Assembly (NCBI GenBank): GCA_050613775.1
Contig: JBODTK010000001.1
Span: 248,001-312,000, forward strand
Direction of reading: 5' to 3'
DNA: 64,000 nucleotides
From: Neocallimastix sp. 'constans'
Lineage: Eukaryota
The position numbers were made by a program, and so were the translations under genes. Numbering within the stretch: position 1 is the first letter of the stretch; each line of letters begins with the position of its first letter. Shown here piece after piece: positions 1-53,336 of this stretch. Below the pieces are notes generated by a model. That model saw only the letters and a program-made list of their open reading frames with translations. It was not told where the DNA came from and searched no databases.

Positions 1-1901
1 TTAACTTTAAAAAAAAAAAAAAAAAGGTAATTTTTATTCATTTATATACTAAATTTTTTTAATATAAATAACTATATTAAAAAATACTTTCAAATATATT
101 AAAAATATATATATATAAAAAAATAAAAAATTAATGTTAATACAAAAATATAAAAGATGAAACTTAATTTTCTTATTATTTCACGGTTTTAATAAATGAA
201 CATTAAATCAATAATTAAATTCTACCTGCTTTGTTTTTGTTTTTGTTTTTGTTTTTGTTTTATGTTCTTATAATACATTATAATATATAGATGACATATA
301 TTAACTGAATTATTTATTATTTAATAATTGTATTGAATCAAATTTTATTTATTAAAATTTATTTATTAATAGTTATTATTAAAATTTATTATTAAAATTT
401 ATTTATTAATAGTTATTATTAAAATTATTAAAAGTTATTTGTTCAAATGTATATTAAATTTTTTTTTAATTTGATAAAAAAAAAAAAAAACTTTAATAAG
501 CTATATTTGTTATTGAAAATAAATTAAAATTTTTGTCACACAAATCATCCTTATCTTATCTTATTCTTATTTATTTTTTTATTTTATTTTTTATATTATT
601 TTATTTTTTATTTAGGAATGAACTTTATTCTTATTTATTTTTTTATTTTATTTTTTATTTAATTTAATTTTAGGAATGAACTTTATTCTTATTTATTTTA
701 TATTTTATTTTTTATTTAGGAATGAATTGATTTCACAATTTGCTATTGCTAAATTTGCTATTGCTAAATTTGTCAGTTAGTAAATGTCTATCAAAGGCAT
801 GTCTCTCATTATAATTATCAATATAATTATATCAATATATAAAACGTTAAGAGGCAGTATTAATAATATAATTTTTTCTTTTCTTTATTAATTTTATTGT
901 ATAAATATATATATTTTTTTATTTCGTTATGTATAAATGTATTCTTTTAATATGATAAATGCTTTATAACAGTTTTTTTTTTTTTTTTTTACTTTTATTT
1001 ATTTATTTTATTTATAATAAAAAAGAATTAATAATATTAAAAATTTAATAATATTTATATTTTTTATTAATATAATCATATATTTTTAAAGGATATTTAT
1101 TAACTAATACATTTAAAATAAAATAAAAAAAAATAATAATAATTTTAAATTATTATTTTAAATATATATATATATATATATAAAAGTGAACCCAAAAGAT
1201 ATAACGATTAAATATATTTATGGTAATTGTTGACTTCATAAAAATAACCGCAGTGATCATTACTTTTAAAATATATATATATATATATAAATAGATATTA
1301 TATAAATAGATATTATGTAAAACCTTTATTATTGGATATAATTATATGAAGTTCAAACAAACGAATAAATCAATTCTATTATATTCTATTTCATTTCATT
1401 TTCATTTTCATTTTTATTTTTATTCTATTTCATTTTTATTTTTATTTTATTTTTATTTCTTTAAAATGTAGAAAACAAATTTCAAATGTTTTATGAAAAT
1501 TAACCTATAAAATTTTATATGTGAATTTTAATTTATAATAAATTAATTTTAATTTATCATATGAACTTTTAGTAGCTATTTTTGATTAATTCAATTTTAT
1601 ATTATTTTATTTTATTAATGTGAACTTTATATCTATTATTTATTATTCATTATTTATTATTTATTATTTATTATTCCATTATTTATTATTAATAAATACT
1701 TATTTTATTTAGTTATTTTTTATTTATTATTCAAATATTTAATTATTTATTATTTATCATTTATTAATAAAAAAATAATTGCTATGACATTTTTAATATT
1801 TTCAAATAATTATTATTTATTTTTTAATTAATATTTTATTTGATTTATTAAAAGTTTTGATATTTTTTATATTTTCATCATAATATTAATTATTATCGTT
1901 A

Positions 1902-1949
<48 letters not shown>

Positions 1950-2206
1950 GTTATTTGTTATTTGTTATTTATTTATTTATTTATATTTTTTATAGAATTT
2001 TAATATTTAATAGATAAACCATAAAAAAAAAAAAAAATACAGAAAAAATTTTTATATAATATTCCATAATTTCCAACAATAAAGCCATATTTTCAAAATA
2101 GAAACAAAGATACATCTTCTTTTGCTACATGTTATTTTTATTTTATTTTATTTTATTTTTTTTAATTTTAAAATTTATATATTTATGTAATATTTTTGTT
2201 TTATTT

Positions 2207-2720
2207 TCGGTGTGTACCTCCCTTGGTTTCAGCCCCCCTCTCCTCATTGTCTATTTCTTGGCCGTAGAATAATTGAGGTGGTCACACACTTCCATATAGG
2301 CAGATATTGTCTCTTCTGGATAGCCTTACTAAAGCGTTTAACATTTGCGCTCTGACATACATATTATTAATGAGAATTTTTCAAGTATGCTTCTCCAATT
2401 CCTAACTTTTCTTTCAATGGAGTCGGTATAATTAAAACCATATTTAAACGTACTAGCACCCTTAGAAAAGTCAGAAAGATTGCAATTTAGTATAATATAG
2501 CTGCGTCACCAAGTAGAATATATATCTACATGGACACATGAAATCATATACCCAAATGTTAGTTATTCCATTGTAAATTATATTAAAAGACAGTGCTTGC
2601 GCAACTGTCTCAGGCCCACATTTAGTTCATTATCATGTTTATCTTACTAAGGAAATTTAGAATAATACTACATATAAGGGAGATATGACTTACCTTTAAC
2701 CCTAACCAGGGTTCGATTAT
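2207..2720 (-). mobile_element. Dispersed ~0.4-0.5 kb repeat family A, copy 1 (SINE-like or LINE 3' end)
   Basis: GC-richer island alignable by eye to 29836-30232 and, inverted, to 42830-43312 (shared blocks such as 'gatattgtctcttctggatagcctta', 'gagaattttt', 'ctccarttcctaactt'). T-rich left flank corresponds to the poly(A) tail of copy 3. Confidence 0.7.
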
Positions 2721-3040
2721 TTATATTAATAATTGTTTTAAATCTTTACATTATCTTTATATATAATAATATATTAGAAATATATTATTATATATAAAAA
2801 TTAATTAAAAATTTTTTTAACTTTAATTTTAACCATAAAAGTAAATGATGTAAATTAATAATAATAAAATTATTCCTAATACTTTAACCGTTTTACATAA
2901 ATATTTCATTTGTTTAATTGGTCTGCTTACATTATTCATGAAAATTAGACTTAAAAAAAAAAAAAAAAAAATTTTTATATTATATTAGTAAATATAAAGG
3001 TATCATCAAAACGGTCATATACCTTATAAAAGTATTTAGT

Positions 3041-3135
3041 ATTAAAGATTTCAAACAGTTAAATATTAAAGATTTCAAACAGTTAAATATTAAAGATTTC
3101 AAACAGTTAAATATTAAAGATTTCAAACAGTTAAA
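3041..3135. repeat. Tandem repeat, ~24-bp unit (attaaagatttcaaacagttaaat) x4
   Basis: Directly visible tandem copies. Confidence 0.85.
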
Positions 3136-8715: not shown

Positions 8716-9201
8716 TATTTAATTTTTTTTTTTAATTACATTTAAATAACATATCTTTTTATGATTGCTAAAGCGGTCTATTCATTGATAATTATATTCT
8801 AAATTTAGATAATTAATTTTTAAATAAATAAAAAAAAAAGTATATTTTTATATATTTTTATATATTTTTTTTTATTTTTTAGTATCGTGTTACATAAAAA
8901 TAAAAATAATAAAAATTATTTTAATATAATAAAAAATTATTTGAAACAATAAAAACAAAAAATTTTTTTTTATTTTTTTAGTAATTTTTTTTATTAAATT
9001 TTTTTATTTTTTACTAAAAAAAAAAAAAAATTAAATTTCAAATACAATAAAAGGAAAAAAATAAAAAAAATTAAAATTTATTTATTTATTTATTATTTAT
9101 TTATTTATTAATAATAAAAAAAAATTAATAATAAAATTAAATTAAATAAAATTAAAAAATTATGATATAGATATAATATATATTATATATATAATATATA
9201 C

Positions 9202-9446
9202 TGTTAAAGTTCAACATAATATTTAAACTTTTGTACATTAAAGTATTATAAATATTTATAATATTTGATTAAGTAATAATTTGTATGTAAAATATAAAAA
9301 GAAAATTTTTTTTATGAAATTAATATTTTGAGTCTTTTTAAATACTTTTTTAAATCATATAAATTAATAAATAATAAATAAAATTTAATTGAAATAATAA
9401 TACATATTGTTGTGTACACATCATATCTTATATTGACTCCTTAATA
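9202..9446 (+). repeat. 5' LTR
   Basis: Starts TGTTAA, ends TTAATA (TTAACA in the 3' LTR); matches 14130-14373 with only a handful of substitutions/indels. Confidence 0.95.
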
Positions 9447-9461
9447 GATTAAGAGTCTCAT
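9447..9461 (+). promoter_or_regulatory. Primer-binding site complementary to the anticodon arm of tRNA-Lys(CUU)
   Basis: gattaagagtctcat immediately follows the 5' LTR; its reverse complement ATGAGACTCTTAATC matches the anticodon stem-loop of eukaryotic tRNA-Lys-CTT as I recall it. Confidence 0.75.
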
Positions 9462-9548
9462 ATATCAAGAGACCTATTATTAATTTTAATTTTTAAAACG
9501 TTTTAATGATTTTAATGACTTTATAATATAATTAATTATTTTATATTA

Positions 9549-12117
9549 ATGTTCCAAAGAATGGCTAAAAGAAAGAATAACAATAATAATCATATTGAAG
9601 AGAGTTCGAGTTCATCGAATTCAACTGAAAATAAGGACGATGAATCGATTTCTTCATATGAAGATGATGAATCCAATGATAAAAGGATTATCATAAACAA
9701 ATATTATGGAAATATAACTAAATCTGTTTTTGAAATTAAAGATTTCGTATTAAATAAAGAAAATTTCTTAGATTGGTATGAACCTTTAAAGAGACATCTC
9801 ATTGCCAATGATTTAGATATTTATATTGAAAAAGAAATCCAATATTCAAATATGAACAGAGGTCAAATAAAATCGGACAATGCGGTTCAATCTATCATAA
9901 TAAATAGTTTAGAAAAATAAAACCAAGAATATTTACGAGGATGTAAAACTGCTAATAGTATGATTGATAGATTAAAAAACCGTTTCTATCAATCTGGCCA
10001 AGCACTATTAAATATTCTTGAATATAAAATTATTAATCTTAAGTTAATAAAAAATGACTATATTCAATAAATTAATGAATTAAACAATCTTTTCGAACAA
10101 CATAAATTTGAATCTAATAAACTAAAAAGAATTCCTTTTGATGAGGAAACTAAACTTTTATTTGCAGTAAATGAATTAGATAGAATTGGTATAAATTCAC
10201 CACCAATTTATAGTTTATAAAACTTTTGATGATCTTATTAAAGAATTAAACAAAAGGCATGACTTTTTCGAAAAAGCCGAAATTTTAAGGTCAAAAACTA
10301 CCGTTGTAAACGATTCAAATGTCAATAATATAAATAAAAATAAACTAAATAATAATAAAAATTATAATAATTCTAATAAAATTCGTAACGAATATTATTG
10401 TCATATATGCAAAACTAAAGGTCACTCTACTGATCATTGTAAATATAATCTTTTAATTAGAGAAAATAATAAATCAGATGATAATGATAAAAGTTATAAA
10501 AATAATAATTACAAAAATAAAAATTATTATAAAAGATATAATAACAAAAATAATTATTACTCTGGAAATATTATTAATAAGAACAATGATAAATCTAATA
10601 ATAATAACAATAATTTTTTTTGAAAATAATGATGAAAATGAAGATGAAGTATACATTGATTTTACAGGAAGTATTTCAGTAATTCAAAATTGTAATTATA
10701 CAACAATAAATAATAATAATAATTCCACACATTGGATTATTGATAGTGGTACTGGCATCAACTTAACTAATAACATCAACAATTTAAACAATATAAATAA
10801 AGTACATAATAAAAATATCATTTATCCAAATGGTGATTTAGACAAGGTCGAAAATGTAGGTTCTTACAATGGTAAATTTAAAAATAAAGATTTTATATTA
10901 TCAAATGTTTATTACGCGTCAAATATTCAAAACAATCTAATTTCCACTCATTCAATATTAAAAAATGGATGCACTATTATAATGAAACGCGTAAATAACA
11001 AAGACCGTTTACAAATATTCAAAAATAATAAGTTAATTGCAAATATTTTTGCGAATGATGAAAATTTATTCGTGTTTGATACAATACCTTCAAATAATAC
11101 TATATCTAAGAATTATGTTTTCAGCATTGATACTAACTTGTGGCATGCTCGTTTGGGACACTTTTATAATAATGATATCAAAGATTTTGTCATTGAGCAT
11201 ACTAAATACCATAATGATAAAAATTGTCGCCAATGCAAAATCACTAAATTAAAGAGAAAACCATTTTACTCTTCCCCTAATAATGCTTCAAAACCTATGG
11301 AACTAGTTCATTCTGATGTAGTTGGAAAATTGGAAACATCATATAATGATTTCAATTATTATGTTACTTTTCTTGATGATTTCTCTAGAAAAATTTGGGT
11401 CTACCTTATCAAGAATAAGTATGATGTTCCTAACATATTTATTAAATTTCATAAATTTATTTCCAATACTACTTCATATAAAATTATAAATTTCAAATCT
11501 GACAATGGTACTGAGTAGATCAACAAAACTTTAACTACCTATTTAGAAAATTTTGGAATTAATTTCATTCATTCAGTTCCTGGTTACCCACAACAAAAAT
11601 GGTCGTGCTGAACGCTTAAATCAAACACTTAATCGTTGCGCATCTACTCTATTAAACTCTGCTAAGCTACCCTACAAGTTTTGGGATTCCGCTATTCTTT
11701 GTGCTGCTTACCTTTATAACTTGAATCCACATCAGAGTATTAATAATAAAATTCCAAATGAATTATTTTTCAATAAATCAGTTGATATTTCCCACCTTAA
11801 AGTTTTTGGATGTAAAGCATTTTTCTATAATAATCACAAAACGAATAAATTTGACAATAACTCTAAACCTGGTATATTTTTAGGATATGCATCTGACTCT
11901 CTTGGCTACAAAATTTTAGATATTTCTACTAACTCTATAGTTACTTCAAGAGATGTTTATTTTATGGAAGATATGCCTGGAACTATAAATACTACATTCT
12001 TTTGTGACAAATATATTGATTCTATTATTAATTTTAAGGATTCTTTAATTGAGGGGGAAAGTATAAATGATAATAATAATATTCATTCACAATTAAATAA
12101 TCCTTTAAATAATAATA

Positions 12118-12179
<62 letters not shown>

Positions 12180-14013
12180 TATGATAATAACAATGATATT
12201 TATAATAATGATGTTAATAATAATTATGATAATTACAAAGATATTTATAATAATGACAATAATAATAATAATAGTAATAAAATTATTAATAATAATAATG
12301 GAACTAAAATAGACGAAAATGAATATGATAGTGAATCTGATAATGAATTTTTAAATGAAAGAAAACTTAAATATATAAACAAGAAAAGATCACATAGCAA
12401 TAATTCAGATGATTCAGATGAAGAAAATTTAACTTCCAGAAAAGAAAAATTACAATCAGTAAGTAAATAAAAGATTTAAAATTTTAAATATTAAAACAAA
12501 TATCCCAACAACGTATCAACAAGCTATTAATTCACCAGAAAGTGAATAATGGAAAGAAGCAATAGATGACGAATTAAAAAATATGTACGACAACAATGTT
12601 ATGAAAGTGGTAAAAAACATACCAGCTGACGCAAATATAATTGGTACTAAATGGGTCTTTGCCGAAAAGGATAAAAAGAAGAAAAAGGCAAGATTAGTGG
12701 CTCTTGGTTGTCAGCAAATTGCTGGAGATGATTTTTATAGAGACATACTCCCCAACAGTCCAAGCAGATAGTATAAGACTTACGGTCGCTATTGCATCAA
12801 AGTTCAACTGGGATTTGAAACAATTGGATATAAAAGCTGCTTACTTGAATGCAGATTTGGAAGAAAAGATTTATACAAAGATTCCTTATGGTGATAAAAA
12901 TTTTAATACTAATAAATTCTGGCTACTTAAAAAAGCTCTTTATGGTTTAAAACAGGCTGGAAGAATGTGGTATAATGAAATATCACATTACTTAGTAAGT
13001 ATAGGTTTTAGAAAATACAAAACTGACAAATGTCTCTTTGGGAAATATAATAAAAATAATAAATTAACATGTTTACTAACATTATATGTAGATAATATTT
13101 TAATAACAGGAATTAAAAATGAAATAAACTATACAGTAAACAAATTAAAAGATAAATATAAAATTTCTAAAGATTCTAATGCAACTAAAATAATAAGGTA
13201 TAAATATTTATAAAACAAGTGATGGTTATAAAATAAATCAGATAGATTATATTAATAAAATAATAGAAAAATATAATATGAAGAAAACAAAACAAATAAA
13301 AACACCATGCAGGAAAATTACAGAATATGAAAGAAATAATTCAAATTTAATAGATCCAAAAGAATATAAATCTTTACTTGGTGCGTTACTATATATCGCT
13401 GTAAAGTCAAGGCCTGATATAATGTTTTCTGTAAGTGAAGCCTCAAGAATATGTGAAAATCCAACAGAAGCTGATTATAAAAATTTAATGAGCATCTTAC
13501 AATATTTAAATGGTACAAAAAATAAATCTTTACATTATAATAAAAATAATAAATTTATCGGATACTCAGATTCAGATTTTTGCTAACGATGAAAAGACGA
13601 GAAGATCTACAAGTGGATATATATTTTTACTTGAAAAAGGCCCTATTTCATGGAAATCTCAGTTACAGAAAAATGTAACTTTATCTACTGCTGAAGCTGA
13701 ATTTGTTAGTTTAACTGAATGTACTAAACAAGCTTTATGGTTCAAAAATTTATTTAAGGAAATATTTAATCAAGATATAAAATTTAAAATTATGGTAGAT
13801 AATAAAGCATGCATTGTAATTGCTCAAGATACAAATTCTAAAGGAAGATGTAAGCATATAGACTTAAGATATAAATTTATTCAAGAAGAGATTATGAAAA
13901 AGGAAATTGAATTAGAATACATTAATACTGAAAACATGTTAGCTGATCCATTAACTAAAAGTATCTCAGGAGTACAAATGACAAAATTTACAAATTTAAT
14001 TTTCAAAGAATAA
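9549..14013 (+). pseudogene. Copia gag-pol polyprotein, disrupted by stops and frameshifts
   Basis: Zinc knuckle CHICKTKGHSTDHC (10399-10440), protease WIIDSGT, LWHARLGH, integrase HSDVVG/DDFSRK/SDNGTE*/NGRAERLN, RT QLDIKAAYLNA/KALYGLKQ/YVDN (YVDD mutated), RNase H YSDSDF/ADPLTK; split across ORFs 9549, 10478, 11553, 12583, 12704, 13278, 13510. Confidence 0.95.
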
Positions 14014-14043
14014 TATTTCTTTAATTGTATATATATATATATA

Positions 14044-14083
<40 letters not shown>

Positions 14084-14129
14084 TGTATATAATAATTAAA
14101 ATATTATATAATACTTAATGTAGGGGGAA

Positions 14130-14373
14130 TGTTAAAAGTTCAACATATTATTTAAACTTTTGTACATTAAAGTATTATAAATATTTATAATATTTGATTA
14201 AGTAATAATTTGTATGTAAAATATAAAAAGAAAATTTTTTTATGAAATTAATATTTTGAGTCTTTTTAAATACTTTTTTAAATCGTATAAATTAATAAAT
14301 AATAAATAAAATTTAATTAAATAATAATACATTTTGTTGTGTACACATCATATCTTATATTGACTCCTTAACA
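14130..14373 (+). repeat. 3' LTR
   Basis: TGTTAA...TTAACA, preceded by the PPT; direct repeat of 9202-9446. Confidence 0.95.
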
Positions 14374-15329: not shown

Positions 15330-15625
15330 ATTAATAATTAGTATTAATATTTATATTGTTATTAAATATAATATTATTAATTTCTTCTTCTTCTTCTTCT
15401 TCTTATTTTTATTTTATTATTATAATTAAAATTGCTTTAGTGTTCTTAAATGGCAGTTTTAAAATTGTTATTATTCAAAGTAGTAATAATACTATTTGAT
15501 TATTTATCTTCTTCTTATTATTTTTATTTTATTATTATAATTAAAATTGCTTTAGTGTTCTTAAATGGCAGTTTTAAAATTGTTACTATTCAAAGTAGTA
15601 ATAATACTATTTGATTATTTATATC
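15330..15625. repeat. Direct-repeat block (units containing aaaattgctttagtgttcttaaatggcagttttaaaattg), also at 18520-19150
   Basis: Two units here and several at 18520-19150, same orientation. Confidence 0.85.
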
Positions 15626-15773: not shown

Positions 15774-16454
15774 TTATAATTTAGAGGATTTTGGTTTTAT
15801 ACAAAAACAAGAACAACAAAAGCAAATAAAGAAACATACAGGTATACCAACCATTAATACAAGACGCAGTGCAACAGCAGGTGTTACACCATCAGGTGGT
15901 ACATTATTTAAACCCATAGTACAAACTCCATCACGACACCTTTCAGATGAACATTCTGTATTAGTATTACATTTATCTCCATAGGCTTTTCCACAATGCA
16001 TGTAAGATTCAGGATCTGAAAATAAAGAAGCTTCTTTGTAAATACTGTCACAATGTACAATAGGAGTTTGACTATTAAACATACAGTAACCTGTGTTCGT
16101 ATTATTATTGTTATTATTAACGAAGCATTTATTAGACAAACATTCTGAATTATAACTACAGTAAGTTTTACTTTTGCATGTATTGGATATAATCTGATCG
16201 TAGTTACATGTTTCCACAATATACTCAGTTATTTTTTCATACTCATTTGGAAGCTTAACTGTGGAATCTCCGTAATATGAACTAGTAGTTGCACAGATAT
16301 TGTTTTTACAGTAAAAACTAAGTTTATATCTTTCTGTGATGTTTAACACTTCATCTTGAGTTATATATTTTATTGCGCTACTAGAGCTCTCACATCTAAT
16401 CAATTGAACTCTGCTAATTATAAAATACAATAGTAACTTAATAACGTATATCAT
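15774..16454 (-). CDS. Cys-rich secreted/type I membrane protein (226 aa)
   Basis: Intact ORF: hydrophobic N-terminal signal, Cys-rich ectodomain with two CxxxxxCxSxxC motifs, C-terminal hydrophobic helix followed by a Cys-rich, basic tail. Confidence 0.85.
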   Translation of the reverse strand: MIYVIKLLLYFIISRVQLIRCESSSSAIKYITQDEVLNITERYKLSFYCKNNICATTSSYYGDSTVKLPNEYEKITEYIVETCNYDQIISNTCKSKTYCSYNSECLSNKCFVNNNNNNTNTGYCMFNSQTPIVHCDSIYKEASLFSDPESYMHCGKAYGDKCNTNTECSSERCRDGVCTMGLNNVPPDGVTPAVALRLVLMVGIPVCFFICFCCSCFCIKPKSSKL

Positions 16455-17788
16455 GTTGAATAATATTATGATTAAATCTTATACTGAAGAGTTTTCTTAA
16501 CTATATTTTATAAATTTATATTATATAATATTTCTATTATCATTAAATTAGAAATATAAATAATTAATTATATAAATTTTATAAATTAATCCTTAAGAAT
16601 AATAATTTTATTTACTATCAATCTATAAGTTATGAATCATTTTAAATAAGAATAACTAACTTAATTTCTTTTAATTAGTTTAATTAATTACTACTTTATT
16701 AAATATTCATGTATAATATTAAAAATAATTAATATTATTAAAATCTATTATTAAATATTAATAACTTAATATGAAATTAGTATTTTCCACCAAATTAATA
16801 ACATAATATTATTAAATATTTATTTTAATACTTAATTTGGTAATAGTAGTTAAAATGACTGACTCATTTTATAATATTAAGAAATTAATTATATCAACAT
16901 TCGTATTCATAAAACTAAAAAATTATTTTTATATATTGAATTTATTATATTGTTTTACTATATATTATTATTATATATAATAAATAATTTTATTTATTTT
17001 ATTGCCAATAGTCTTATTACAAATTATTTTGTTACACCATAATAAAATATATATTTAGGATTATAATGGATTCCTTCTATTAATTGCTGCTAATAAAATA
17101 TATATAGAATTATTATTGCTTAAATATTAAATAAATTTAAAATAATTATATATTACTTATTAATAAAAATTTTTATTAGTTATATCATATAAAATTTAAA
17201 TAGTCTTTAAATTTAAAATTTTTTTTTTTTTAACGAAATAATAAAGTAATATTTTAATAATTAATATGCGAAATTTGTTTTGATTAATTGCTTCATTTTT
17301 TGTAGGCTTAATGCATTCTTATCTAAATATCAATTCCTTTCTTTCAAGAAAATATATATTTTATTAATTAAACCTAAATATATAAATCTTTTTTTTTTAT
17401 TATTATAAATTATACTATAAAATCATCTAGTTATTTTTTTAATTGTTTTGGAAGTTCTTTTTAAAAAAAATATATATTTAAAATTAAATAATTAATAAAG
17501 CATAAACTTTTCTATATTTTGAATTAAAATAATTTAAATGAGCAATTATTCAAATATATATAAAATAAAAATATGTATTATAATTATTGCATATAGTATA
17601 ATATAATTAAACATAATATGAATAGATATTCTAGAACTATTATTATTAATAATTTCTTTTACAAATAATATAAAATAAAATATAAAGGATATTAGTTTGA
17701 AGAGTCTTATTATGCAGTTAGTTTTATAATCATCATGATATTTATTTAATCTCGTAATGTCATATCTCTAATTTTATTTCATAATTAA

Positions 17789-18520
17789 TTAGTCATTTGT
17801 ATTTGAAAAATTAATAACTTTCAAATAAGATGTATATTGGTTTTGAAATGGATTAAGAAATGAAAATGCTTTTATTGAATATTGATTAATTATATCAAAA
17901 TTATATTTTTCAAATATTTTTATTATTTTTTTCACTATTAATTGCATTTTCATAATGTTTGGTTAAATTAGAATTTTCAATATTCACAAATGTTATATTA
18001 TCACATTCTTTATGAACATATCGTAAGGTACCTATTAAATGAACTGGTGATTCTTCATCTAAGGAATCTAAAAATTTATTTTTATGTATTAATACATTGT
18101 TGATATTTTATACAAGGTGAATCGATATCACTATTGAATAAGCTATAATCCATAAAAAGCACTATAAATATTCCATTGATATTTTGGCTATATTGTTATA
18201 TTGTTCAACATACTTTCAATGTCACTATAATTGAAATCATTAAGGGCAAAAAAAAAAACACGTAACAATATTAAACGTGTCTTTTAATTTAATGTTTTGA
18301 ATAGTATTTGGATATATGGTGATACGATTCGTAATATCTGATTTTTTAATTCTTTCATTTAAATTTTTTTAATTTCTCGTTATCGGGTTCAACACATGCA
18401 ATTTTTCGGAAGTGTTTCCATTTATGAATATCTCCACCATTCCCAGAACCTATATCAAGTAAGTTTCCTTTATATTCATTAAGTATATTTTGCTTTTATT
18501 TTATTATGATATTTATATAT
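17789..18520 (-). pseudogene. mRNA cap guanine-N7 methyltransferase remnant, virus-like
   Basis: Manual minus-strand translation across frameshifts: YKYHNKIK..NILNEYKGNLLDIGSGNGGDIHKWKHFRKIACVEPD (SAM motif at 18418-18462)...FNIVTCFF.ALNDF...HYENAINSEKIIKIFEKYNF...YLKVINFSNTND* (stop 17789-17791). Resembles cap MTase motifs FHNxIK, LDxGxGxGGDxxKW and FDxVSCQFALHY. Confidence 0.8.
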
Positions 18521-19150
18521 TATTATTAATTTCTTCTTCTTCGTTTTCTTCATCTTCATCTTCTTCTTCTTATTTTTATTTTATTATTATAATTAAAATT
18601 GCTTTAGTGTTCTTAAATGGTAGTTTTAAAATTGTTTTAGTGTTCTTAAATGGCAGTTTTAAAATTGTTTTAGTGTTCTTAAATGGCAGTTTTAAAATTG
18701 TTTTAGTGTTCTTAAATGGCAGTTTTAAAATTGTTATTATTCAAATTAGTAATAATACTATTTGATTATTTATCTTCTTCTTATTATTTTTATTTTATTA
18801 TAATTAAAATTGCTTTAGTGTTCTTAAATGGCAGTTTTAAAATTGTTATTATTCAAATTAGTAATAATACTATTTGATTATTTATATAAGTACTTGCAGA
18901 AATATTAATAATAATTAGTATTAATATTTATCTTGTTATTAAAAGTATTATTAATTTCTTCTTATTCTTCTTATTCTTCTTATTCTTCTTTTTCTTCTTT
19001 ATCTTTTTCTTTTTCTTTTTCTTTTTCATCTTATAATATTTTTATTACTATTATTATTAGAATTAAAATTGTTTTAGTGTTCTTAAATGATAGTTTTAAA
19101 ATTGTTATTATTTATGGTAGTAATAATATTATTTAATTATTTATATGAAT
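18520..19150. repeat. Compound tandem repeat (33-bp subunits within larger units)
   Basis: aaaattgttttagtgttcttaaatggcagtttt repeated; homologous to 15330-15625. Confidence 0.85.
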
Positions 19151-19299
19151 ACTTGTGTGAGTATTATTATTAATTGTATTAATAATACTATTATTTTAAT
19201 TATCATAGTTATTAAAATTAATACAAGAATTAATATCAATAAACTATGATATTAAATAATATGATTATTTTTGTTTATTATATTTAGAAAAAAAAAAAA

Positions 19300-19880
19300 A
19301 AAAAAAAACTCATGGCTCTAAATAATACCAAATTATCGTTTAGATTCTACACTTATCATTTTTATTACGGGAATATACAAATAAAGGTTAATTATAAACG
19401 CGTAATAACACTAGCTAGCTACTGAAGATTGCATACTCTCGTCAATTCTCAGCGTTCATAACACATTTCGATAGCTTTAAATATGTTATGCTATAAAGGG
19501 TTGTAAATTATTATTATTAATATTATGTAATAATTGTATATTTAGATTATTTATTATCAAATTGAACACTAGGTTCTAATTTATTATAGTTAACACCATT
19601 ATTAACACCATTATTAATACCATTATTAATATCATTATTAAAATTATTTGTAGAATTATTTTTTAGAAATATTATTATTAAATTTATTATTATAATTATT
19701 ATTAGGCTTTGTATCTTCTATAATAATTTTTTTCTGTTTCTAAATCTTCTATTTTCTAAGTTATTATCATCGTCGCTTTTATTATCAATATTTTCTAATG
19801 AAGTATCATTAATAGAACTTTCTTCATTTTATCTATCATTTCAAACAAATCATCTAAGGAGAGCTGTTTTTTTAGACATC
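19300..19880 (-). pseudogene. Decayed unknown ORF directly downstream of the RNA polymerase remnant
   Basis: Coding-like minus-strand fragments across frameshifts (MSKK.LSLDDLFEMID..EESSINDTSLENIDNKSDDDNNLEN..., Asn-rich); no recognisable motif. Confidence 0.4.
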
Positions 19881-20460
19881 TTAACTTTTAACATTAGCAA
19901 TTTGTAAATATCTTATAGTTAAAATTTAAGCTATTACTTAACAGAGATTTCTCTTTTAATATAATTCCCACAAGAGCAAGTATCAATAGTATACATATTT
20001 CCACAACTATCACAAATATTAATTTTTTATTTCATCCGAATCATCCTTTAAAAACTGATTTTAATAAATGTTTAGGTAATCATGAACTATTAAAGCATTT
20101 CTTTTCCATTTCACCAATTCTTAATTCACCTCCTTTAGCTTTGCCTTTCTGTAGGTTGTCTAGTTACAGAATATATATTGCCAGTATTTCTATAAAACAT
20201 TTTTTTTCTTCTACTTGATGTTGTCAAAGCATTATAATAACATATCCCAATATTAGCTTTACCAATAGGAATACCTTCAAAGAGGATCTATCATAATTTC
20301 ACCATTTAAATTATTAAATAGATCAGGATTATCATTATGTAAATTATTTTAGTAAATCTTCATAATTAATATTATTAGATAATAGATAAATCAGAATTAA
20401 ATCTTATTCCATACTTAGGTAGGATCTATAGCAATATAAGATGAATAATGTTCCATTGCT
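19870..20460 (-). pseudogene. C-terminal part of a DNA-directed RNA polymerase second-largest (Rpb2/beta-like) subunit, divergent and virus-like
   Basis: Translation across single-base frameshifts: GEIMIDPL.EGIPIGKANIGICYYNAL.HQVEEK.MFYRNTGNIYSVTRQPTE.GKAKGGELRIGEME.RNALIVH...DDSDEIK.INICDSCGNMYTIDTCSCGN. TRQP at 20153-20164, GEME at 20104-20115, clamp Zn-finger Cys at 19970-20014. Confidence 0.88.
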
Positions 20461-20501
20461 TCGAAAAATTTTAAAAAAGAGTAATTAAATTATCACCATA
20501 A

Positions 20502-26559: not shown

Positions 26560-29110
26560 TTAGTTGCAAACACAATCTTGTTTTTTAATTAATACGTCTT
26601 CACATTTTCTATTTTCTATTTTACGAAGAAGAGATTTTCCCCAAATAGTAACACTCTTGAATTCTTTAGCATCGATAGTGACAGTACTGTTCTTACTTTG
26701 TTTTTGACTTCTTTTAGAAAGGAAATCATTGTTCTGTAGATCAATATCTTCTTTCCAGAGTCTTTCCTTTTCTTCTAACCATTCATCTAATCTTCCTGGG
26801 TTTTCATTATTTCGTTTTGCATTTTTATTCACTTTAACTTTTGATATTTCCATACTCTTAATACCATAATTATCTTTTTCATGGGGTTCAAGTTTAATAT
26901 CAAAGTTTAATAAATCTTTAAAAGTGGCATGAATATCGAAAGATGAAATTAATTTTTGTTCATTCTCATCTAAATTTTGTCTCAATTCTGGATAATCATT
27001 TAAGAAACGTTCTGGAATAAGGGTAGTTAAGAAAGGTAATTTATGTTCTACAAAACCTTGTTTAGAGAATAAAAAGCGGAATCCTACATGTAACCCATGA
27101 TCACTTACCATGAAAATAGCTGTACGATTTAAGGTTTCATCATCTAAAGATCCAATTAAATCAGCAAGATCACCATCTATTAATTTTAATACTGAAGCGG
27201 TACTTTCATGAGCTTCAATGAAAGTAGTACGGAAGAACCATGGATTAGTACCATCATAAGTTTTAATAAAGTCCTTGGTATAATCTACAGCATATTGATG
27301 TACATATCTTCCAGTAAGACAACGTCTAAGAATGGAGTAAGGTCCTTTGAAATTACCAAATGGAAAACCAGTACGTGGATGATATTCTGGTAAACAAAAT
27401 GGAGCTAATAAATCATGATCATATGAAACTTTGGCACGATGGTTATAACTTGAATCTATATTATTTAATAAAAAAAACCATTAACAATTAACAACAATAA
27501 TATTTATTAAAATGATTTATATTCATAATAATTTTAATTTAGATTAAATTATATATCATTTTAAAATAAAATATTAATAATATATATAGAAATTAAAATA
27601 AAAAATATTTATATAAATAAATAAAAAAATAAAAATATATATATATATATATATATTTATAATACTAATAATACATATATAGAAATTAAAATGAAAAAAT
27701 ATATATATATATAAATTATATATATATAATACTAATAATATATATATAGAAATTAAAATAAAAAAAATATATATATATATAAAATTATATATATATATAT
27801 ATATTTATATACATCTATTTACCCCAATCTTCACATTGATCATTTGTTTCACCTGCAACATAACCATTATTCCTATAATCTTCCCAAATAGGTAAACCAC
27901 TTTTTCCTTTAGTAACTCGAACACCAGCGAATAAACCTAATGAATTTGGATTGGTATTAAAACCAACAACACCATAACGGAAGAATTGATTTAAATGCAT
28001 TTTACCCGATTTATGTAATGCTTCCATTTTTTTCTGAGTTTTTGGAAGACTTCTGAAAAATTGAGGACGACTCATCGCATCAATAAAAATTAATAAAATA
28101 TTTAATTTATCCTTGGGTTGAGGTCCCTTTACTGGCTTAACTCTTCTTCCGGCCACACGTACCACCAATTTATCATGGTTACCACATTTAGCAAGGACCG
28201 CTTCAACGTCTGGAAGAGCAACAGGTTCCGTATAGTTAAATACACTAACATCTATTCTTCTGTTGACACTTCTTCTTAAAGCGGTCTTTTTTCTTTCCTT
28301 AATATTCATAGTACGAGTTTCTGGAAGTACTGCATAAGACATTGGAAGATCTTCTGGACAGTCAACAATTGTAAATTTATTTTCATTTTCGGAATCAAAA
28401 TAAGCATTAAAAACTTCTTTTCTGTCACAACTTTCTGATCCTGTCCAAATGTTTTGACGTACTGGAAGTAAATCAAACCATGGAATAGTCCTTCTCACCT
28501 TACAAAGATTTTCCCCATCTTCAATTTTTTTATTTAAGAATCCAGTTTCCCAAACACTTTCAAGATGTCTAAGAGTAAAGAAGGATATGAAGGAAATAAA
28601 AAACGCAAATATACAAATTTGCTTTACGAATTTATTTAATTCTACTAAAGTATACCATTTATAGATAATTAATGATAGAGTATCAAAAATAACAATGAAT
28701 ATACAGAATACCATAAAGTTGTACATGCCGTGAAATCTAAATCGTTCCCCATGGTCATAGTGGAAAGCACCCACTAAGGATATTATCATGATAATATAAA
28801 GGAGAGCCTTTACTCTCTTTCTAACTTTCATAAATGCTATAGTCCATAAACATAAACTATAAAAAACAAATGAAATTATAAGTAGCGTACTAAGTTTAAA
28901 TAAATTTCTTTTTATAAATTCTAATTTTCCTCCTTCTAAACTTCTTTTATAAAATACAATCCACAATATATAAAAAACTCCAAAAATTACAAAAATTTTT
29001 TTATTATGTTTCTTAACATAATTATCATGTTTTGTTTTTATGTTGTCATCATCCTTTTCATTCAACATAAGTGGATAGATATCAACTTCTATAGGTACAT
29101 ACTCTGACAT
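26560..29110 (-). CDS. Membrane-anchored DUF229-like / alkaline phosphatase-sulfatase superfamily protein; 2 exons (29110-27823, 27455-26560)
   Basis: N-terminal multi-TM region, then NILLIFIDAMSRPQFFRSLPKT, FIEAHE and FMVSDHG metal-binding motifs. A GT-AG intron at 27822-27456 joins CEDW-D-SSYNH... in frame into ORF 26560..27111. ATG start (MSEYVP) at 29110. Confidence 0.88.
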
Positions 29111-29835
29111 TATTTCGTTTATTGAATAATTTATCAAATTATGATTATATACATATTTAAAGTCCAAAAAGATATAAAAATATAAATAAGTATATATATA
29201 TTTTTTTTTTTTTTAATTATGAATATATATATATATTAAATTCCAATTATAAATAAGTATATATATATATATATATTTTTTTTTTTTAATTATGAATATA
29301 TATATATATTAAATTCCAATTATGATATAAATGTTAATCTTTTGTTTATTGTTGATAATATTTAAATATCTATCTATATTTTCTATTAAAGCATAAAATC
29401 AACGAACAAAATGTTCTAATAAATATTATATAAATAATAATTTTAATAATAATAAATAAAAAAAAATATAAAAAAAAAATAAAAAAAAATAAAAAAAATA
29501 AAATATATATATATATATATAATTCTGATAATTTAAAAAAAAAAAAAAAAAAAAAAGGGTTTATAATATATAAAATTATATTGTTAATTACATATATAAT
29601 TTTTATTTTAATTTATTCGTTAAAAATTCCTATATAATAATTTTTAATTTAAATAATATTTGTTTATTTTTTATTTTATTTTATTTTTTTTTTTTTTTTT
29701 TGGACCTCATTAATATAATTATTAATTTATTAATATATTTATTCATTAATTAATATTTATTAATTCATTCATTAGTATTATTTATTATTATTTTATTCAT
29801 TCATTCACTTATTAAGATAAACAATTTTTCCATAC

Positions 29836-36169: not shown

Positions 36170-37600
36170 TTATATTATATTATTTAAATTAGTTAAACAA
36201 TCAAACCACAAATTAATAATTTTATTTCTATCACATTTAGCATCAATTAATTTGGCTTCAATACTTTTGAAGCGTTCAATTAAGACACTGATTTCGTTAG
36301 CTTTATTTATTGCTCTTTTTTTTATTTTCCAAATTCCTCTTATTTTTCTTTGATAATCGATAATCATAATATGATAAATGTTCAAGTTCATTTAATTTAT
36401 CTATTAATTCATAAAAAGATGGTTTTGTTGGAAATAAATTATTTAAATAATTATTGAGTGATTCTGAGGCATTGTTTGTTATATGTTCTATATTATTATA
36501 ATAATTCCAAATTTTCATATCATAATCAATTAAATATGTTTTATAAAAATATTCTAAAAATTTTAAAAATTGACAATAATTATTTTTAATGGATTTAATT
36601 TTAATTATAACATAAATATCAAATATATATTCAGGATTTATAAATGGTAAATTTAAAATAGCTTTATAATAAATAAATATATTATTATTATTTTTTACTT
36701 CATTATAGCATAATTTATTTTTTTTAATTTCTAGTGATTTTTTATAATGCCAAATGCAATATTTAATATTTGTATTAGGAAATATTGTTTTTGCTGCTTT
36801 AGATATGGCCCTTTCAAAATCACAATGCAAATTTTTTGGTTCAATTCTAATATTATTGTTACATGTATTAGCATTTTTTTCAATTTTTCAAATAACATTT
36901 TATATGTTTCTTGTTCTTTATTTTTTAATATTGCAAAAGAAGTAGTGTAAAAACTATCTAATTCTTTAGCATAAGTTCTTGTAATAAATACTTGATAACT
37001 AAATTTAGGGGCGATAAAAAATGTACCATCAACAAATATATCATCATTATATTCCCTAAATAATTTTGCTTGAAAAGGGGATTGAAAAATTATTAAATTA
37101 GAATTTTTGAATATCATAAAATTTTCACCTCGCTTTGTATTATAATATTCAGATTCACTTGGAATTTCAGCAAATGTTGTTACATTGGATGGTAGTTTTT
37201 TATTTAAATTTCTTGATATTTGGGATTTAATTGAATTATATTCTGGACATATAAGTCCCATTTCTTTAGAAATTTTATTATATAGGGGTTTTATTTTTAT
37301 ACCAAAAGGAATTGAACTTTTTTCAATTCCATCTTTAATTTTATGTTTCATTATAGATAGGGATACATCGTATTCATTTTCAGGATGATTATGTGAACTA
37401 TTATACTTTAAAATTTCTTTCTTATCATTTAAAATAATAAAAGATTTACATTTATTTATTTTTTTATATTCTGTACATTTATACACTTTGGAATTATCTT
37501 TTCTTTTATATGAAAAATTAAATTTATATTTTTTATTAATAATAATTTGTTCTTTTCCTTTGTTGGATTCACTTATATCAATAATTAAATTTTCTTCCAT
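36170..37600 (-). pseudogene. MULE transposase with FLYWCH-like N-terminus, frameshifted into three ORFs
   Basis: YKC...CKS...HNH zinc finger, IFVDGTF, HCDFERAI, CIWH and TNNASESLN motifs in ORFs 36731..37600, 36303..36830 and 36170..36391. Confidence 0.9.
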
Positions 37601-38049
37601 TTCTATATTTTTATAAATATTTTTTAATTATATAATTATAATTATTATATTAATTATCCAATATTATTCGTAATATTAATTTTGAAAAATTAGTTTTTCA
37701 ATTATTTGTAAAATAAATAAATAAATAAATAAAGAATGTAATAATATAAGTACAAGTATATAAAATAAAATAAATATTAAATGTAATATTATAAAAGTAC
37801 AAGTATATATAATAAAATAAATATTTATTATTTTTTTTTATTAAAGAATATTAAAGACAATTTATTTTTAAAAATAAAATGTTTTATTTAATTATATATG
37901 TTAGAAAGCAAAAAATCATTTATATTTAATGAGATTATTAACTACCAATAATATTAAACTACATCATTAATTGAATATAATAAAAATGTAAAAATTTTTC
38001 ATTTCGAAAACATTGATCTTTAATATTCTTTAATAAAAATTAATAATAG

Positions 38050-45237: not shown

Positions 45238-46101
45238 TTAAAATCCACTACCCCAAATCTTTGAACATCGATCATTGATAGCTAAACATTCCTTAAGTAA
45301 GGCATCGGAATAGGGCTTCTTCCAACATTCATTTAATTCGGCATAGCAGGCATCGGATTTCTTTTGCTTACAATCCCAATCCTCAGCAGCGCATTCTCCC
45401 GTTGGAACTTCAGTTTGAGTTGGAGTTTGAGTTGGACTTGATTTAGAAATGGTGGTGGTAGTAGTGGTAGTAGTTTTCTTGGTGGTTGGAAGTGTGGTTG
45501 GAAGTGCCTTAGAAAATCTAGAAGTATTAGTTGGAAGACTCTTTGATGATTTAGAAGTAGTATTAGTTGGAAGACTCTTTGTTGATTTAGAAGTAGTATT
45601 AGTTGGAAGACTCTTTGTTGATTTAGAAGTAGTATTAGTTGGAAGACTCTCTGATGATTTAGAAGTAGTATTAGTTGGAAGACTCTTTGATGATTTAGAA
45701 GTAGTATTAGTTGGAAGACTCTTTGATGATTTAGAAGTAGTATTAGTTGGAAGGGCCTTAGATGATCTGGAAGTGCTAGCTGGAAGAGTTTTAGAAGTCT
45801 TAGAAGCAATAGTTGGAAGGGCCTTAGATGATCTGGAAGTGCTAGCTGGAAGAGTTTTAGAAGATCTAGAAGTAAGAGTTGGAAGAGCCTTGGATGATCT
45901 AGAAGTAAGAGTTGGAAGGGCTTTAGATGATTTGGAAGTTAAAATTGGAAGTGTTTTAGAAGACCTAGAAATGGAGGCTGGAAGAGTCTTGGAAGTTGAA
46001 ACAATTTCTGAATTTGGAAGTGTTTTAGAATCAACTCCAATAATTTCACTTTGGAATGTTAAAGCAACGATGCAGTTTAAAAAGATTTTACTGAATTTCA
46101 T
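45238..46101 (-). CDS. Secreted S/T/K/P-rich repeat protein with C-terminal 6-Cys domain, paralog 1 (287 aa)
   Basis: Intact ORF; signal peptide; 12-aa SKxLPTNTTSKS-type repeats; C-terminal C-x6-C-x7-C-x6-C-x12-C-x6-C. Confidence 0.9.
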   Translation of the reverse strand: MKFSKIFLNCIVALTFQSEIIGVDSKTLPNSEIVSTSKTLPASISRSSKTLPILTSKSSKALPTLTSRSSKALPTLTSRSSKTLPASTSRSSKALPTIASKTSKTLPASTSRSSKALPTNTTSKSSKSLPTNTTSKSSKSLPTNTTSKSSESLPTNTTSKSTKSLPTNTTSKSTKSLPTNTTSKSSKSLPTNTSRFSKALPTTLPTTKKTTTTTTTTISKSSPTQTPTQTEVPTGECAAEDWDCKQKKSDACYAELNECWKKPYSDALLKECLAINDRCSKIWGSGF

Positions 46102-46792
46102 TTTTAATTATATTTTATATATTGTATAATAAATCACTAGATAGATTAATTTAATTTTCTTTGGATATTTTTTTATAAAATAAATTGTTAATTAATAATA
46201 AAGAAAATAAAAAAAAATAAATGGGAAATTTAATGCCTTTTTATATTTTTATTTTTATTTTATTTTTTTTTTTTTTTTTTTTGAAATTTAGAAAAAAAAA
46301 AAAAATTATTTAATATATTTTTTAATAATTTTTTTTTTTTAAATAAAGTAATAAATATATAAAATATTTAATTTTAAATTTATTTTAACTTTATTGAAAT
46401 AATTTAAAAAAGTATACATCAGTAATAATGTTTAATAACAATGATTTAAAATAACAATAATAATAATAATTATAAAAAAAAAAAAAAAAAAATTATTCCA
46501 TTCTTTATCTCTCAAATTTATCTTTACAACGCCATAATTTAAAAATTTTTTATTTTTTAATAATAAATTAAATTTATTATTTTCTTTCCTATTAATATAA
46601 ATTCATTCTTTAAAGTATAATTATGAATTATATAGATAAAGATTATATATATATATATATTTATATAGTGTATGGATAAATGATAAAGATTTTTCCCTTT
46701 ACGGCATAATTTAAAATCATTTTAATTGTTAAGGCCGCATGAATAATAGTAACAATGAGATAACTAAAAATATATTTAAAAATATTTTAAAT

Positions 46793-49711: not shown

Positions 49712-50527
49712 TTAATTACTCCAAATCTTTGAACATCGGTCATTAATAGCTAAACATTCCTTAAGTAAGGCATCGGAATAGGGCTTCTTCCAACATTCAT
49801 TTAATTCGGCATAGCAGGCATCGGATTTTTTTTGCTTACAATCCCAATCCTTAGCAGCGCATTCTTCCGTTGGAACTTCAATTTGAGTTTGAGTTTGAGT
49901 TGGACTTGATTTAGAAGTGGTGGTGGTAGTAGTGGTAGTAGTTTTCTTGGTGGTTGGAAGATTCTTTGATGATTTAGAAGTAGTATTAGTTGGAAGACTC
50001 TTTGATGATTTAGAAGTAGTATTAGTTGGAAGACTCTTTGATGATTTAGAAGTAGTATTAGTTGGAAGACTCTTTGATGATTTAGAAGTAGTATTAGTTG
50101 GAAGACTCTTTGTTGATTTAGAAGTAGTATTAGTTGGAAGACTCTTTGATGATTTAGAAGTAGTATTAGCTGGAAGACTCTTTGATGATTTAGAAGTAGT
50201 ATTAGTTGGAAGGGCCTTAGATGATCTGGAAGTGTTAGCTGGAAGAGTCTTAGAAGTCTTAGAAACAATAGTTGGAAGAGCCTTGGATGATCTAGAAGTA
50301 AGAGTTGGAAGAGCCTTGGATGATCTAGAAGTAAGAGTTGGAAGGGCTTTAGATGATTTGGAAGTTAAAATTGGAAGTGTTTTAGAAGACCTAGAAATGG
50401 AGGCTGGAAGAGTCTTGGAAGTTGAAACAATTTCTGAATTTGGAAGTGTTTTAGAAGCCACTCCAATAATTTCACTTTGGAATGTTAAAGCAACGATGCA
50501 GTTTAAAAAGATTTTACTGAATTTCAT
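49712..50527 (-). CDS. Secreted repeat protein, paralog 2 (271 aa), recent duplicate of paralog 1
   Basis: Near-identical N-terminus, 5' flank and Cys domain to paralog 1; different repeat composition. Confidence 0.9.
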   Translation of the reverse strand: MKFSKIFLNCIVALTFQSEIIGVASKTLPNSEIVSTSKTLPASISRSSKTLPILTSKSSKALPTLTSRSSKALPTLTSRSSKALPTIVSKTSKTLPANTSRSSKALPTNTTSKSSKSLPANTTSKSSKSLPTNTTSKSTKSLPTNTTSKSSKSLPTNTTSKSSKSLPTNTTSKSSKSLPTNTTSKSSKNLPTTKKTTTTTTTTTSKSSPTQTQTQIEVPTEECAAKDWDCKQKKSDACYAELNECWKKPYSDALLKECLAINDRCSKIWSN

Positions 50528-50966
50528 TTTTAATTATATTTTATATATATTGTATAATAAATCACTAGATAGATTAATTTAATTTTCTTTGGATGGATAT
50601 TTTTTTTTATAAAATAAATTGTTAATTGATAATAAAGAAAATAAAAAAAATAAATGGGAAATTTAATGCCTTTTTATATTTTTATTTTTTTTTTTTTTTG
50701 AAATTTAAAAAAAAAAATTATAATAATTTATACTCATAAAATAAAATAATAAACGTATTTACTTAGACATCTAAAATTTAATCTAATAATTATAATTAAA
50801 AAGGAATAAAATTAAAATTTAAATTATAAATAAAGTAATTAATTATATAATATAAAATAAAATAATATAATAAAAATATGAAATAAAACAAAAATAAAAA
50901 AAAGTTATTTTATATATCCTTAGCACTATCTCACTTTTTTTGTGCAACTAATAATTATTTACAAAC

Positions 50967-52789: not shown

Positions 52790-53336
52790 ATGATTAATTC
52801 GAAAACAGTTTCTATAATTATCCTTTGATTTCTTTTCCTTCTATCTATCCTTATTACCATATAGATCCATTCAATGATTTACATAATCAAATTATTAAGA
52901 CTTTTATCAATGATTTCTTTAAATCTGTTGATTTCAGTCTAAAGATTAACTTAATCGAAGATGAAAATAATTATTATATTCATGCTGATTTATCAAGTAT
53001 GAATAAGGATCAAGTTAAAATAGAACTTTCTGGCGATAATCATGTTTTAACTTTTTCTTGTGAAAAAGAATCTAACATAGATAACTCTAATAATGACAAT
53101 AATAATGACAATAATAATGACAATAATGATAACAATGATAATGATAATATTAAGGATGCTAACAAAAATAAAAAAAAAAAAAATTAATAAATAAGATACT
53201 AAAAAATATTCAAGAATAGAATATAGTTATGGTAAATTCTTAAGATCATTTACTTTTCCTGAATATTATGATACTAATAAAAATTCAAGTTAAATTAGAA
53301 AATGGAGTTTTAGAAATACATTTTCCAAAACTTTAA
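52790..53336 (+). pseudogene. Small heat shock protein (Hsp20/alpha-crystallin) pseudogene
   Basis: INLIEDENNYYIHADLSSMNKDQVKIEL...VLTFSCEK, then after frameshifts RIEYSYGKFLRSFTFPE...IQVKLENGVLEIHFPK; start degraded. Confidence 0.8.

Follow-up and report, generated by a model that had tools for sequence, protein, structure and literature searches.

Frameshifted fragments of RPB2 and mRNA-capping genes, probably left by fundsalphavirus-type elements, in the chromosome of an anaerobic gut fungus

The window analysed here is the whole of a very AT-rich stretch of 64,000 nucleotides from the assembly of the anaerobic gut fungus Neocallimastix sp. 'constans' (contig JBODTK010000001.1, positions 248,001 to 312,000). 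The subject of this report is a group of gene remnants on its minus strand that resemble genes of the fundsalphaviruses, which are endogenous elements of early-diverging fungi similar to nucleocytoplasmic large DNA viruses (NCLDVs; Gong, Zhang and Han, 2020; PMC7017919). An earlier sequence-only reading had pointed out two co-oriented, frameshifted remnants missing from the track of open reading frames (ORFs), one an Rpb2-type C-terminus and the other a cap guanine-N7 methyltransferase. All of the motifs that it quoted were found in the reading frames, and no minus-strand ORF of at least 100 amino acids lies there. The features of the segment are the following.

19864–20444, minus strand: 3′ end of RPB2 (last 186 codons), of a minor and apparently fundsalphavirus-type subfamily; 14 insertion frameshifts, no stop
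19516–19879, minus strand: 5′ two thirds of a small acidic, Asn-rich gene that overlaps the RPB2 end; five insertion frameshifts
18524–19260, no strand: low-complexity repeat array that lies between the two viral blocks; tandem units of 33 bp and 9 bp, part of a 115-bp unit
17792–18523, minus strand: 3′ part of a capping-enzyme gene (guanine-N7 methyltransferase domain, ∼240 codons); six frameshifts, no stop
15774–16454, minus strand: intact gene for a cysteine-rich protein of 226 amino acids from a gut-fungal family, with a hydrophobic N-terminus and a hydrophobic C-terminal segment
15355–15624, no strand: second copy of the array (two 115-bp units), which together with the first flanks the methyltransferase remnant and the cysteine-rich gene

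The RPB2 remnant was aligned in a frameshift-aware manner with P0004, a gene model of Anaeromyces robustus, and also as DNA with the metagenome contig L001. Read from 20444 to 19864, it matches residues 189–374 of the 376 in P0004 at 147 of 172 positions (85%) with a score of 690, compared with 38 for the best of ten shuffles, and the Rpb2-type C-terminus is thereby borne out. No further RPB2 was found upstream (5′) of 20444, where the top score of 38 is at shuffle level. RPB2 terminates with a stop codon after the zinc ribbon (Rpb2_7) both in the window and in all intact relatives, and the gene that comes next is small and unrelated. With X scored as a mismatch, the window sequence is 71–79% identical to members of its own subfamily and 37–40% identical to the main subfamily; relatives bearing a name (three among four matches) are gene models of Neocallimastix, Anaeromyces or Piromyces only.

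Trees were built over 176 columns from 60 RPB2 sequences, kept from 243 matches after removal of near-duplicates, and a second time from 32 of those 60; they contain IMG/VR viruses and archaea, and neither a cellular eukaryote nor a named pithovirus. The window sequence groups with P0004, P0001 and P0003 (ultrafast bootstrap, UFBoot, 99), this group joins the main gut-fungal clade (UFBoot 100) and both join a protein from the moss Sphagnum (UFBoot 100). Because the trees hold no named pithovirus, the link to Pithovirus is that of the published work (PMC7017919). Scans of IMG/VR gave no close relatives and only distant viruses (at most 42% identity in short segments), a metagenome scan gave two short loci out of 516 candidates and a scan of prokaryote genomes gave two weak, unrelated matches out of 182.

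Three related loci were observed in passing. At 37–3125, L001 carries a nearly full-length RPB2 that belongs to the window's subfamily and has an in-frame stop near 2070; a gene of the P0279 type comes next. In the JGI contig L002, a small host-like ORF has immediately downstream of it an RPB2 3′ fragment of this family (835–1233, 52% identical to the query), which would be a second insertion junction. A gut-fungal RPB2 of the main clade (P0261) is annotated on a 5.1-kb contig of a Methanosphaera metagenome-assembled genome, where it is likely to be a binning contaminant.

The small gene begins with an ATG at 19879 and was aligned from 19869 to 19516 with P0279, an unnamed protein of 145 amino acids, at 52 of 92 identical positions (57%; score 180, best of 30 shuffles 43). 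In L001 a P0279-type gene likewise follows RPB2 directly. P0279 itself was assigned to no family in Pfam (one match under the cut-off) or in the ESM Atlas (best score 0.81). An assignment of the small gene as a uracil-DNA glycosylase (UDG), prompted by the gene order of Gong et al. and by a likeness of motifs, was rejected, as the gene matches P0279. The further decayed ORF that had been described as packed between the two remnants is therefore real; the segment is nevertheless not packed with genes, since ∼1 kb (19515–18524) of the 1.34-kb gap between RPB2 and the methyltransferase is low-complexity repeat.

The methyltransferase remnant (18523–17792), aligned in the same way with residues 109–348 of P0006, shows 199 of 234 identical positions (85%) and a score of 1002 (best of ten shuffles, 45), in agreement with the cap N7-methyltransferase of the sequence-only reading; its ∼240 codons belong to a capping enzyme of some 800 amino acids. 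It is 84% identical to P0207 and 58% identical to P0010 from A. robustus (X again a mismatch), and its named relatives (six among 19 matches) are once more gene models of Neocallimastix, Anaeromyces or Piromyces only. The best profile match is human RNMT (E = 4.5e-4). When single frames were searched against Pfam with stops written as X, neither remnant was detected.

In the intact relatives of this gene, which are 799–880 amino acids long, a glutamate motif is conserved close to the N-terminus and a KxDG motif lies in mid-protein; we take these to be the triphosphatase and guanylyltransferase motifs, respectively. Pfam matches of the relatives to mRNA_cap_C were weak and under the cut-off. 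For a predicted model of one of them, of low confidence (mean pLDDT 45, TM-scores near 0.2), the top nine Foldseek matches were full-length vaccinia D1, and the identity to Abd1 was 13–14%. On this model, the intact relatives appear to be three-domain (triphosphatase–guanylyltransferase–methyltransferase) enzymes resembling vaccinia D1. This architecture is that of the relatives, and the window keeps the methyltransferase part only. A weak acidic match to the N-terminus of the capping enzyme (score 65), possibly a trace of the 5′ part of the gene, lies in the low-complexity array.

The two arrays share a direct repeat of 199 bp (15426–15624 and 18692–18887, 96.5% identical) that brackets the methyltransferase remnant together with the cysteine-rich gene and leaves RPB2 outside; a 25-nucleotide core of the repeat occurs eight times in the window, each time inside one of the two arrays. 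The cysteine-rich protein is 38% identical to P0210 over 242 columns (E = 3e-41), and the P0210 gene comes directly after the capping gene in the P0207 copy, so that the cysteine-rich gene may travel with the element and was possibly carried in by it. Alternatively, it may belong to a host family and lie here by chance. Its Atlas clusters are mostly of Chytridiomycota, the same protein was found on 17 JGI/ENA contigs and over its first 205 residues the ORF is identical to one gene model present in both N. californiae and N. sp. 'constans', which points to Neocallimastix as the host.

The closest relatives of the two remnants are discordant. The RPB2 genes that neighbour P0207 (P0262 and P0263; neighbour status taken from accession numbers and contig sizes) belong to the main subfamily, and not to that of the window, and in linked gene pairs RPB2 is more conserved (80%) than the methyltransferase (60%). 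This discordance, together with a junction that runs across a repeat array, makes it likely that the segment is a mosaic, the simplest reading being that two blocks of different origin were joined at the array. The side-by-side position of the two genes thus probably does not go back to a single genome.

The three remnants have decayed mainly by insertion. Among 25 frameshifts in total, 24 are insertions of one or two bases and one was scored as −2, and there is no in-frame stop over ∼520 codons; in RPB2, where L001 was used for the alignment, the inserted bases mostly lengthen a run of one base. Columns invariant among the relatives are changed at four of 54 and five of 85 positions in the two remnants, which is within the range obtained when intact relatives were left out in turn (2–5 of ∼60 and 2–10 of ∼93), and few substitutions can therefore have accumulated since inactivation.

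Reads from four of 24 runs were compared over 19730–20470. In the Illumina run X12 (depth ∼4.6), two 151-nucleotide records are identical to 19969–20119 and 20134–20284 and span eight of the 14 RPB2 insertions; X12 is an RNA library, and the match is no proof of transcription. An origin of the frameshifts as long-read errors was disfavoured by these exact matches. Three DNA runs gave only short pieces over RPB2, and several of these stem from other copies in which the inserted bases are missing. The contiguity of the segment is supported only by the window itself and by P0230 and P0020, the methyltransferase remnant and the cysteine-rich gene, which are adjacent gene models on a public contig of 2,342,469 bp that may belong to the same assembly.

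Comparison was then made with the published family. By DNA polymerase, fundsalphaviruses lie near Pithovirus, and they encode an RNA-primed family B polymerase (PMC7017919). Five Neocallimastigomycota genomes were reported to hold 41 copies (N. californiae 26, P. finnis 6, A. robustus 4, Piromyces E2 4 and Pecoramyces 1), and the gut-fungal elements group with moss elements (PMC7017919). Genes common to the family include RPB2 and an S-adenosylmethionine (SAM) methyltransferase (MTase). Fig. S2 of that work gives the order MTase-UDG-RPB2-D5-POL in Neocallimastix and Anaeromyces, D5 being a primase-helicase, and draws MCFG01000387.1 as AdoMet MTase-UDG-RPB2-D5-POL-RP1c; in three P. finnis rows the MTase directly adjoins RPB2 (PMC7017919). 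The available capsid and ATPase trees (Figs S9 and S10) carry no Neocallimastigomycota label; the figure trees were compared as lists of labels, without topology.

The window agrees with this family in its host group, in holding RPB2 and methyltransferase genes and in frameshifted copies near retrotransposons. Its RPB2 falls in the gut-fungal and moss clade of the trees described above, its methyltransferase is homologous to published copies (P0010, to which it is 58% identical, comes from an A. robustus contig that at 64,180 bp has the size of MCFG01000387.1, a link made by size and species) and its broken genes, with their 25 frameshifts, stand in a long host contig with host genes and transposons around them. 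It differs in that its RPB2 belongs to a minor subfamily. The gene order agrees only in part: RPB2 and the methyltransferase are neighbours, but a P0279-type gene and not UDG follows RPB2 and occupies the middle position, D5 and POL were not found and the blocks look mosaic. The published label is SAM methyltransferase, whereas the intact relatives examined here would be full three-domain capping enzymes.

Among other known systems, the NCLDV-like regions of the moss Physcomitrella patens (Maumus et al., 2014; PMC4083422) are similar in having a core with RPB2 and an mRNA-capping methyltransferase and in that no capsid or packaging ATPase was found in them; the RPB2 of another moss, Sphagnum, is sister to the gut-fungal ones in our trees. 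They differ in their plant host, in a reconstructed region of ∼13 kb and in an identity of 35% to the window RPB2. The poxvirus module (vaccinia rpo132 and D1) shares the self-encoded polymerase and the three-domain capping enzyme, but the capping enzymes are 12–14% identical and P0004 scores 109 bits to vaccinia versus 143–160 to cellular subunits, so that this transcription module would be a functional analogue and not a close relative. Mycodnaviridae (PMC13533422) are also Nucleocytoviricota of zoosporic fungi, with both fossils and active infections; they are defined by the major capsid protein, reach 350 kb and are kin of Imitervirales/Algavirales, and the main text of that paper, as far as available, does not name Neocallimastigomycota. 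A literature search that covered few subscription papers yielded no later study of gut-fungal fundsalphaviruses.

Among solved structures, RPB2 matches archaeal and eukaryotic subunits best and the methyltransferase matches human RNMT best; such cellular matches would be expected if the remnants were pseudogenes, processed or decayed, of RPB2, RPA2 or RPC2 and Abd1 of the host. A true fungal orthologue should, however, lie far nearer to one polymerase class, and since the bit scores of P0004 are flat over all of them (archaeal subunit 160, yeast Pol II 153, Pol III 148 and Pol I 143), RPB2 does not appear to be a host orthologue. Nor does the methyltransferase appear to be Abd1, which is a stand-alone enzyme, because it forms the tail of an 800-residue, apparently three-domain protein with 13–14% identity to Abd1 in the structure alignment. 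As far as tested by bit scores, trees and Foldseek, neither protein nests within the fungal clades, and a host origin is extremely improbable. The sequence-only reading had placed pGKL-type linear plasmids beside giant viruses as possible sources, and nuclear capture of a pGKL2-like, yeast-type cytoplasmic plasmid would account for the AT-richness, the RNA polymerase and the three-domain capping enzyme; such plasmids are found beyond yeasts, with one tentative chytrid case (PMC13348850). The large subunit of pGKL2 is a β–β′ fusion (PMC6211774), whereas RPB2 here stops unfused after Rpb2_7, and the published neighbours of the gut-fungal genes are the D5 primase-helicase and the RNA-primed polymerase near Pithovirus (PMC7017919). 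On these grounds the plasmid reading appears to be largely refuted, and we consider it very improbable. A protein-primed DNA polymerase and terminal inverted repeats also mark the pGKL2 type; the window contains no element end and no polymerase from which either could be read.

An assembly artefact, in which a read full of errors, from an element that is extrachromosomal or multi-copy and collapsed, became joined to the host contig, would explain why the frameshifts are insertions in base runs resembling uncorrected long-read errors and why intact-looking copies in three DNA runs lack the inserted bases. It is hard to reconcile with the two X12 records, with the intact state of the adjoining cysteine-rich gene and several long host ORFs and with the 2.34 Mb public contig (maybe the same assembly) that shows the methyltransferase remnant beside the cysteine-rich gene, and is judged improbable. 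A different rival contests the mosaic part only: the segment could be one contiguous piece of a single, already recombinant element, the middle of which was later replaced by the array through a deletion. RPB2, the small gene, the capping enzyme and the cysteine-rich gene are all co-oriented, both RPB2 near the methyltransferase and the methyltransferase followed by the cysteine-rich gene are orders known from relatives, and the weak acidic match in the array could be a relic of the capping N-terminus. Moreover, MCOG01000331.1 falls in different groups for DNA polymerase and RPB2 in the available label lists of Gong et al., so that exchange between subfamilies seems to occur. Against a single piece stand the direct repeat, which flanks the methyltransferase and cysteine-rich block alone, and the unequal density of frameshifts (19 in ∼930 bp of the RPB2 block and six in 732 bp of the methyltransferase); in addition, DNA runs that hold 74–78% of the words of 17700–20480 are sparse over RPB2, although the filter could cause such holes. 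A single recombinant element is thus a serious possibility, if the less probable one.

The explanation that we hold to be very probable is that dead, frameshifted fragments of RPB2, the small gene and the capping gene were left in a Neocallimastix chromosome by fundsalphavirus-type elements and probably form a mosaic of two subfamilies. Several observations weigh against it. Membership of the family is defined by the DNA polymerase tree (PMC7017919), and a search of the window, of low sensitivity for broken and distant genes, gave no polymerase; no read or contig was seen to span the RPB2 stretch or the flank junctions; and the RPB2 trees have long branches, 176 columns and the restricted sampling given above. 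The predicted capping model is of low confidence, with mRNA_cap_C below threshold, and gene linkage in the relatives was taken from accession numbers and contig sizes, not from DNA.

In the source elements, a self-encoded multisubunit RNA polymerase and a triphosphatase–guanylyltransferase–methyltransferase enzyme would have carried out transcription and capping in the cytoplasm, as we infer from the gene content and from the practice of poxviruses and other NCLDVs. Illegitimate recombination would have brought the pieces into the chromosome; neither an integrase nor a terminal repeat nor a duplication of the target was seen at the locus. After entry the 5′ parts would have been lost, and decay would have proceeded chiefly by insertions of one or two bases in base runs. 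The locus is now most likely without function, except for the intact cysteine-rich gene.

The rest of the window supports a fungal nuclear setting, since it contains a copia-type retrotransposon, a MULE-type transposase and a split host gene, as listed.

9066–14371: copia-type long terminal repeat (LTR) retrotransposon, ORFs at 10195–14013; LTR pair 9066–9444 and 14005–14371, 86% alike
26560–29212, minus strand: gene for a sulfatase-like (DUF229) membrane protein, divided into two or more pieces that are probably exons
36303–37627, minus strand: FLYWCH/MULE-type transposase, split by one frame change

The copia element consists of seven ORF pieces with a frame shift of +1 at all six junctions, and it thus shares the insertion bias of the viral remnants. 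Four intact, co-oriented minus-strand paralogues (45238–46107, 49712–50533, 55033–56736 and 60614–62254) begin with a signal-like segment, continue with long tandem repeats of threonine, lysine and proline ('KTLP') and end in a short domain with four cysteines; they are likely to be secreted surface proteins. A minus-strand ORF piece at 52798–53187 resembles a small heat-shock protein and may encode one. Part of the remnant stretch is present in 17 of the 24 listed sequencing runs, which are animal feces metagenomes and one organism run. A tblastn search of the window with 7,807 ORFs of 164 loci, of low sensitivity for broken and distant genes, revealed no further viral remnant and none of DNA polymerase, D5, helicase, RPB1, capsid protein or A32 packaging ATPase.

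The relatives point to a wider question. In one capping cluster the longest Logan contigs measure 42,384–42,490 bp in four of seven members (39.6, 28.3 and 27.1 kb in the others), and a single RPB2 was found on 38 contigs, the longest of 42,490 bp. In a further RPB2 cluster, of 83 members, seven of the 15 listed have the full 1,177 amino acids and two lie 16 accession numbers apart on one 308-kb contig. The recurrent 42.4-kb contigs and full-length RPB2 copies involve P0019, P0193, P0194, P0196, P0037 and the P0031 cluster. Together, the 42.4-kb contigs and the many full-length copies in Neocallimastix assemblies hint at an element of unit length that amplifies; equal sizes are also expected from collapsed integrated repeats. 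A published N. californiae contig of 40,310 bp has the gene set in circularly permuted order (PMC7017919), and no report of a 42-kb unit was met in the literature search.

It is conceivable, and we propose it only tentatively, that gut-fungal fundsalphaviruses are more than relics of a giant virus and form a living family of possibly capsid-less, ∼42-kb replicons that encode an RNA polymerase, a capping enzyme and a DNA polymerase, are present in dozens of intact copies per Neocallimastix genome, integrate in tandem, recombine between subfamilies and transport the host's genes for cysteine-rich membrane proteins. The best model for how such a unit might live would be pGKL2/pSKL, fungal DNA replicons that are capsid-less and cytoplasmic and that encode an RNA polymerase and a capping enzyme (PMC6211774; PMC13348850), but which differ in the β–β′ fusion polymerase, protein-primed replication and a size of 9–13 kb in yeast, none of which was seen here (PMC6211774).

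The sequence-only reading had taken the locus for an endogenized giant-virus fragment and for evidence of DNA viruses in this fungal lineage. A viral (Nucleocytoviricota-like) origin and a nuclear setting are upheld by the present analysis. A giant virus is unproven, as the relatives suggest a unit of ∼40–42 kb and no capsid gene is tied to them, and the family was published in 2020 with neighbouring methyltransferase and RPB2 genes in these genera (PMC7017919), so that the locus is not new evidence of DNA viruses there. What is new is the discordance of the closest relatives and the mosaic that it suggests, the insertion-biased decay with eight insertions matched in X12 and a possible cysteine-rich passenger gene.

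That NCLDV-like elements have met anaerobic gut fungi has been in print since 2020; the locus adds little to this, and its value is that of a pointer to a family that has barely been studied. Decay by insertion only informs how AT-rich gut-fungal genomes erode foreign genes. If the 42-kb unit is live, a minimal element derived from NCLDVs could be studied in cultured rumen fungi, which would be a tractable system. Maumus et al. considered plasmid and transposon readings of the moss regions and argued against both (PMC4083422); a living unit of this kind, if true, would bear on the question raised by those regions in 2014, whether they are what is left of large viruses or small replicons complete in themselves.

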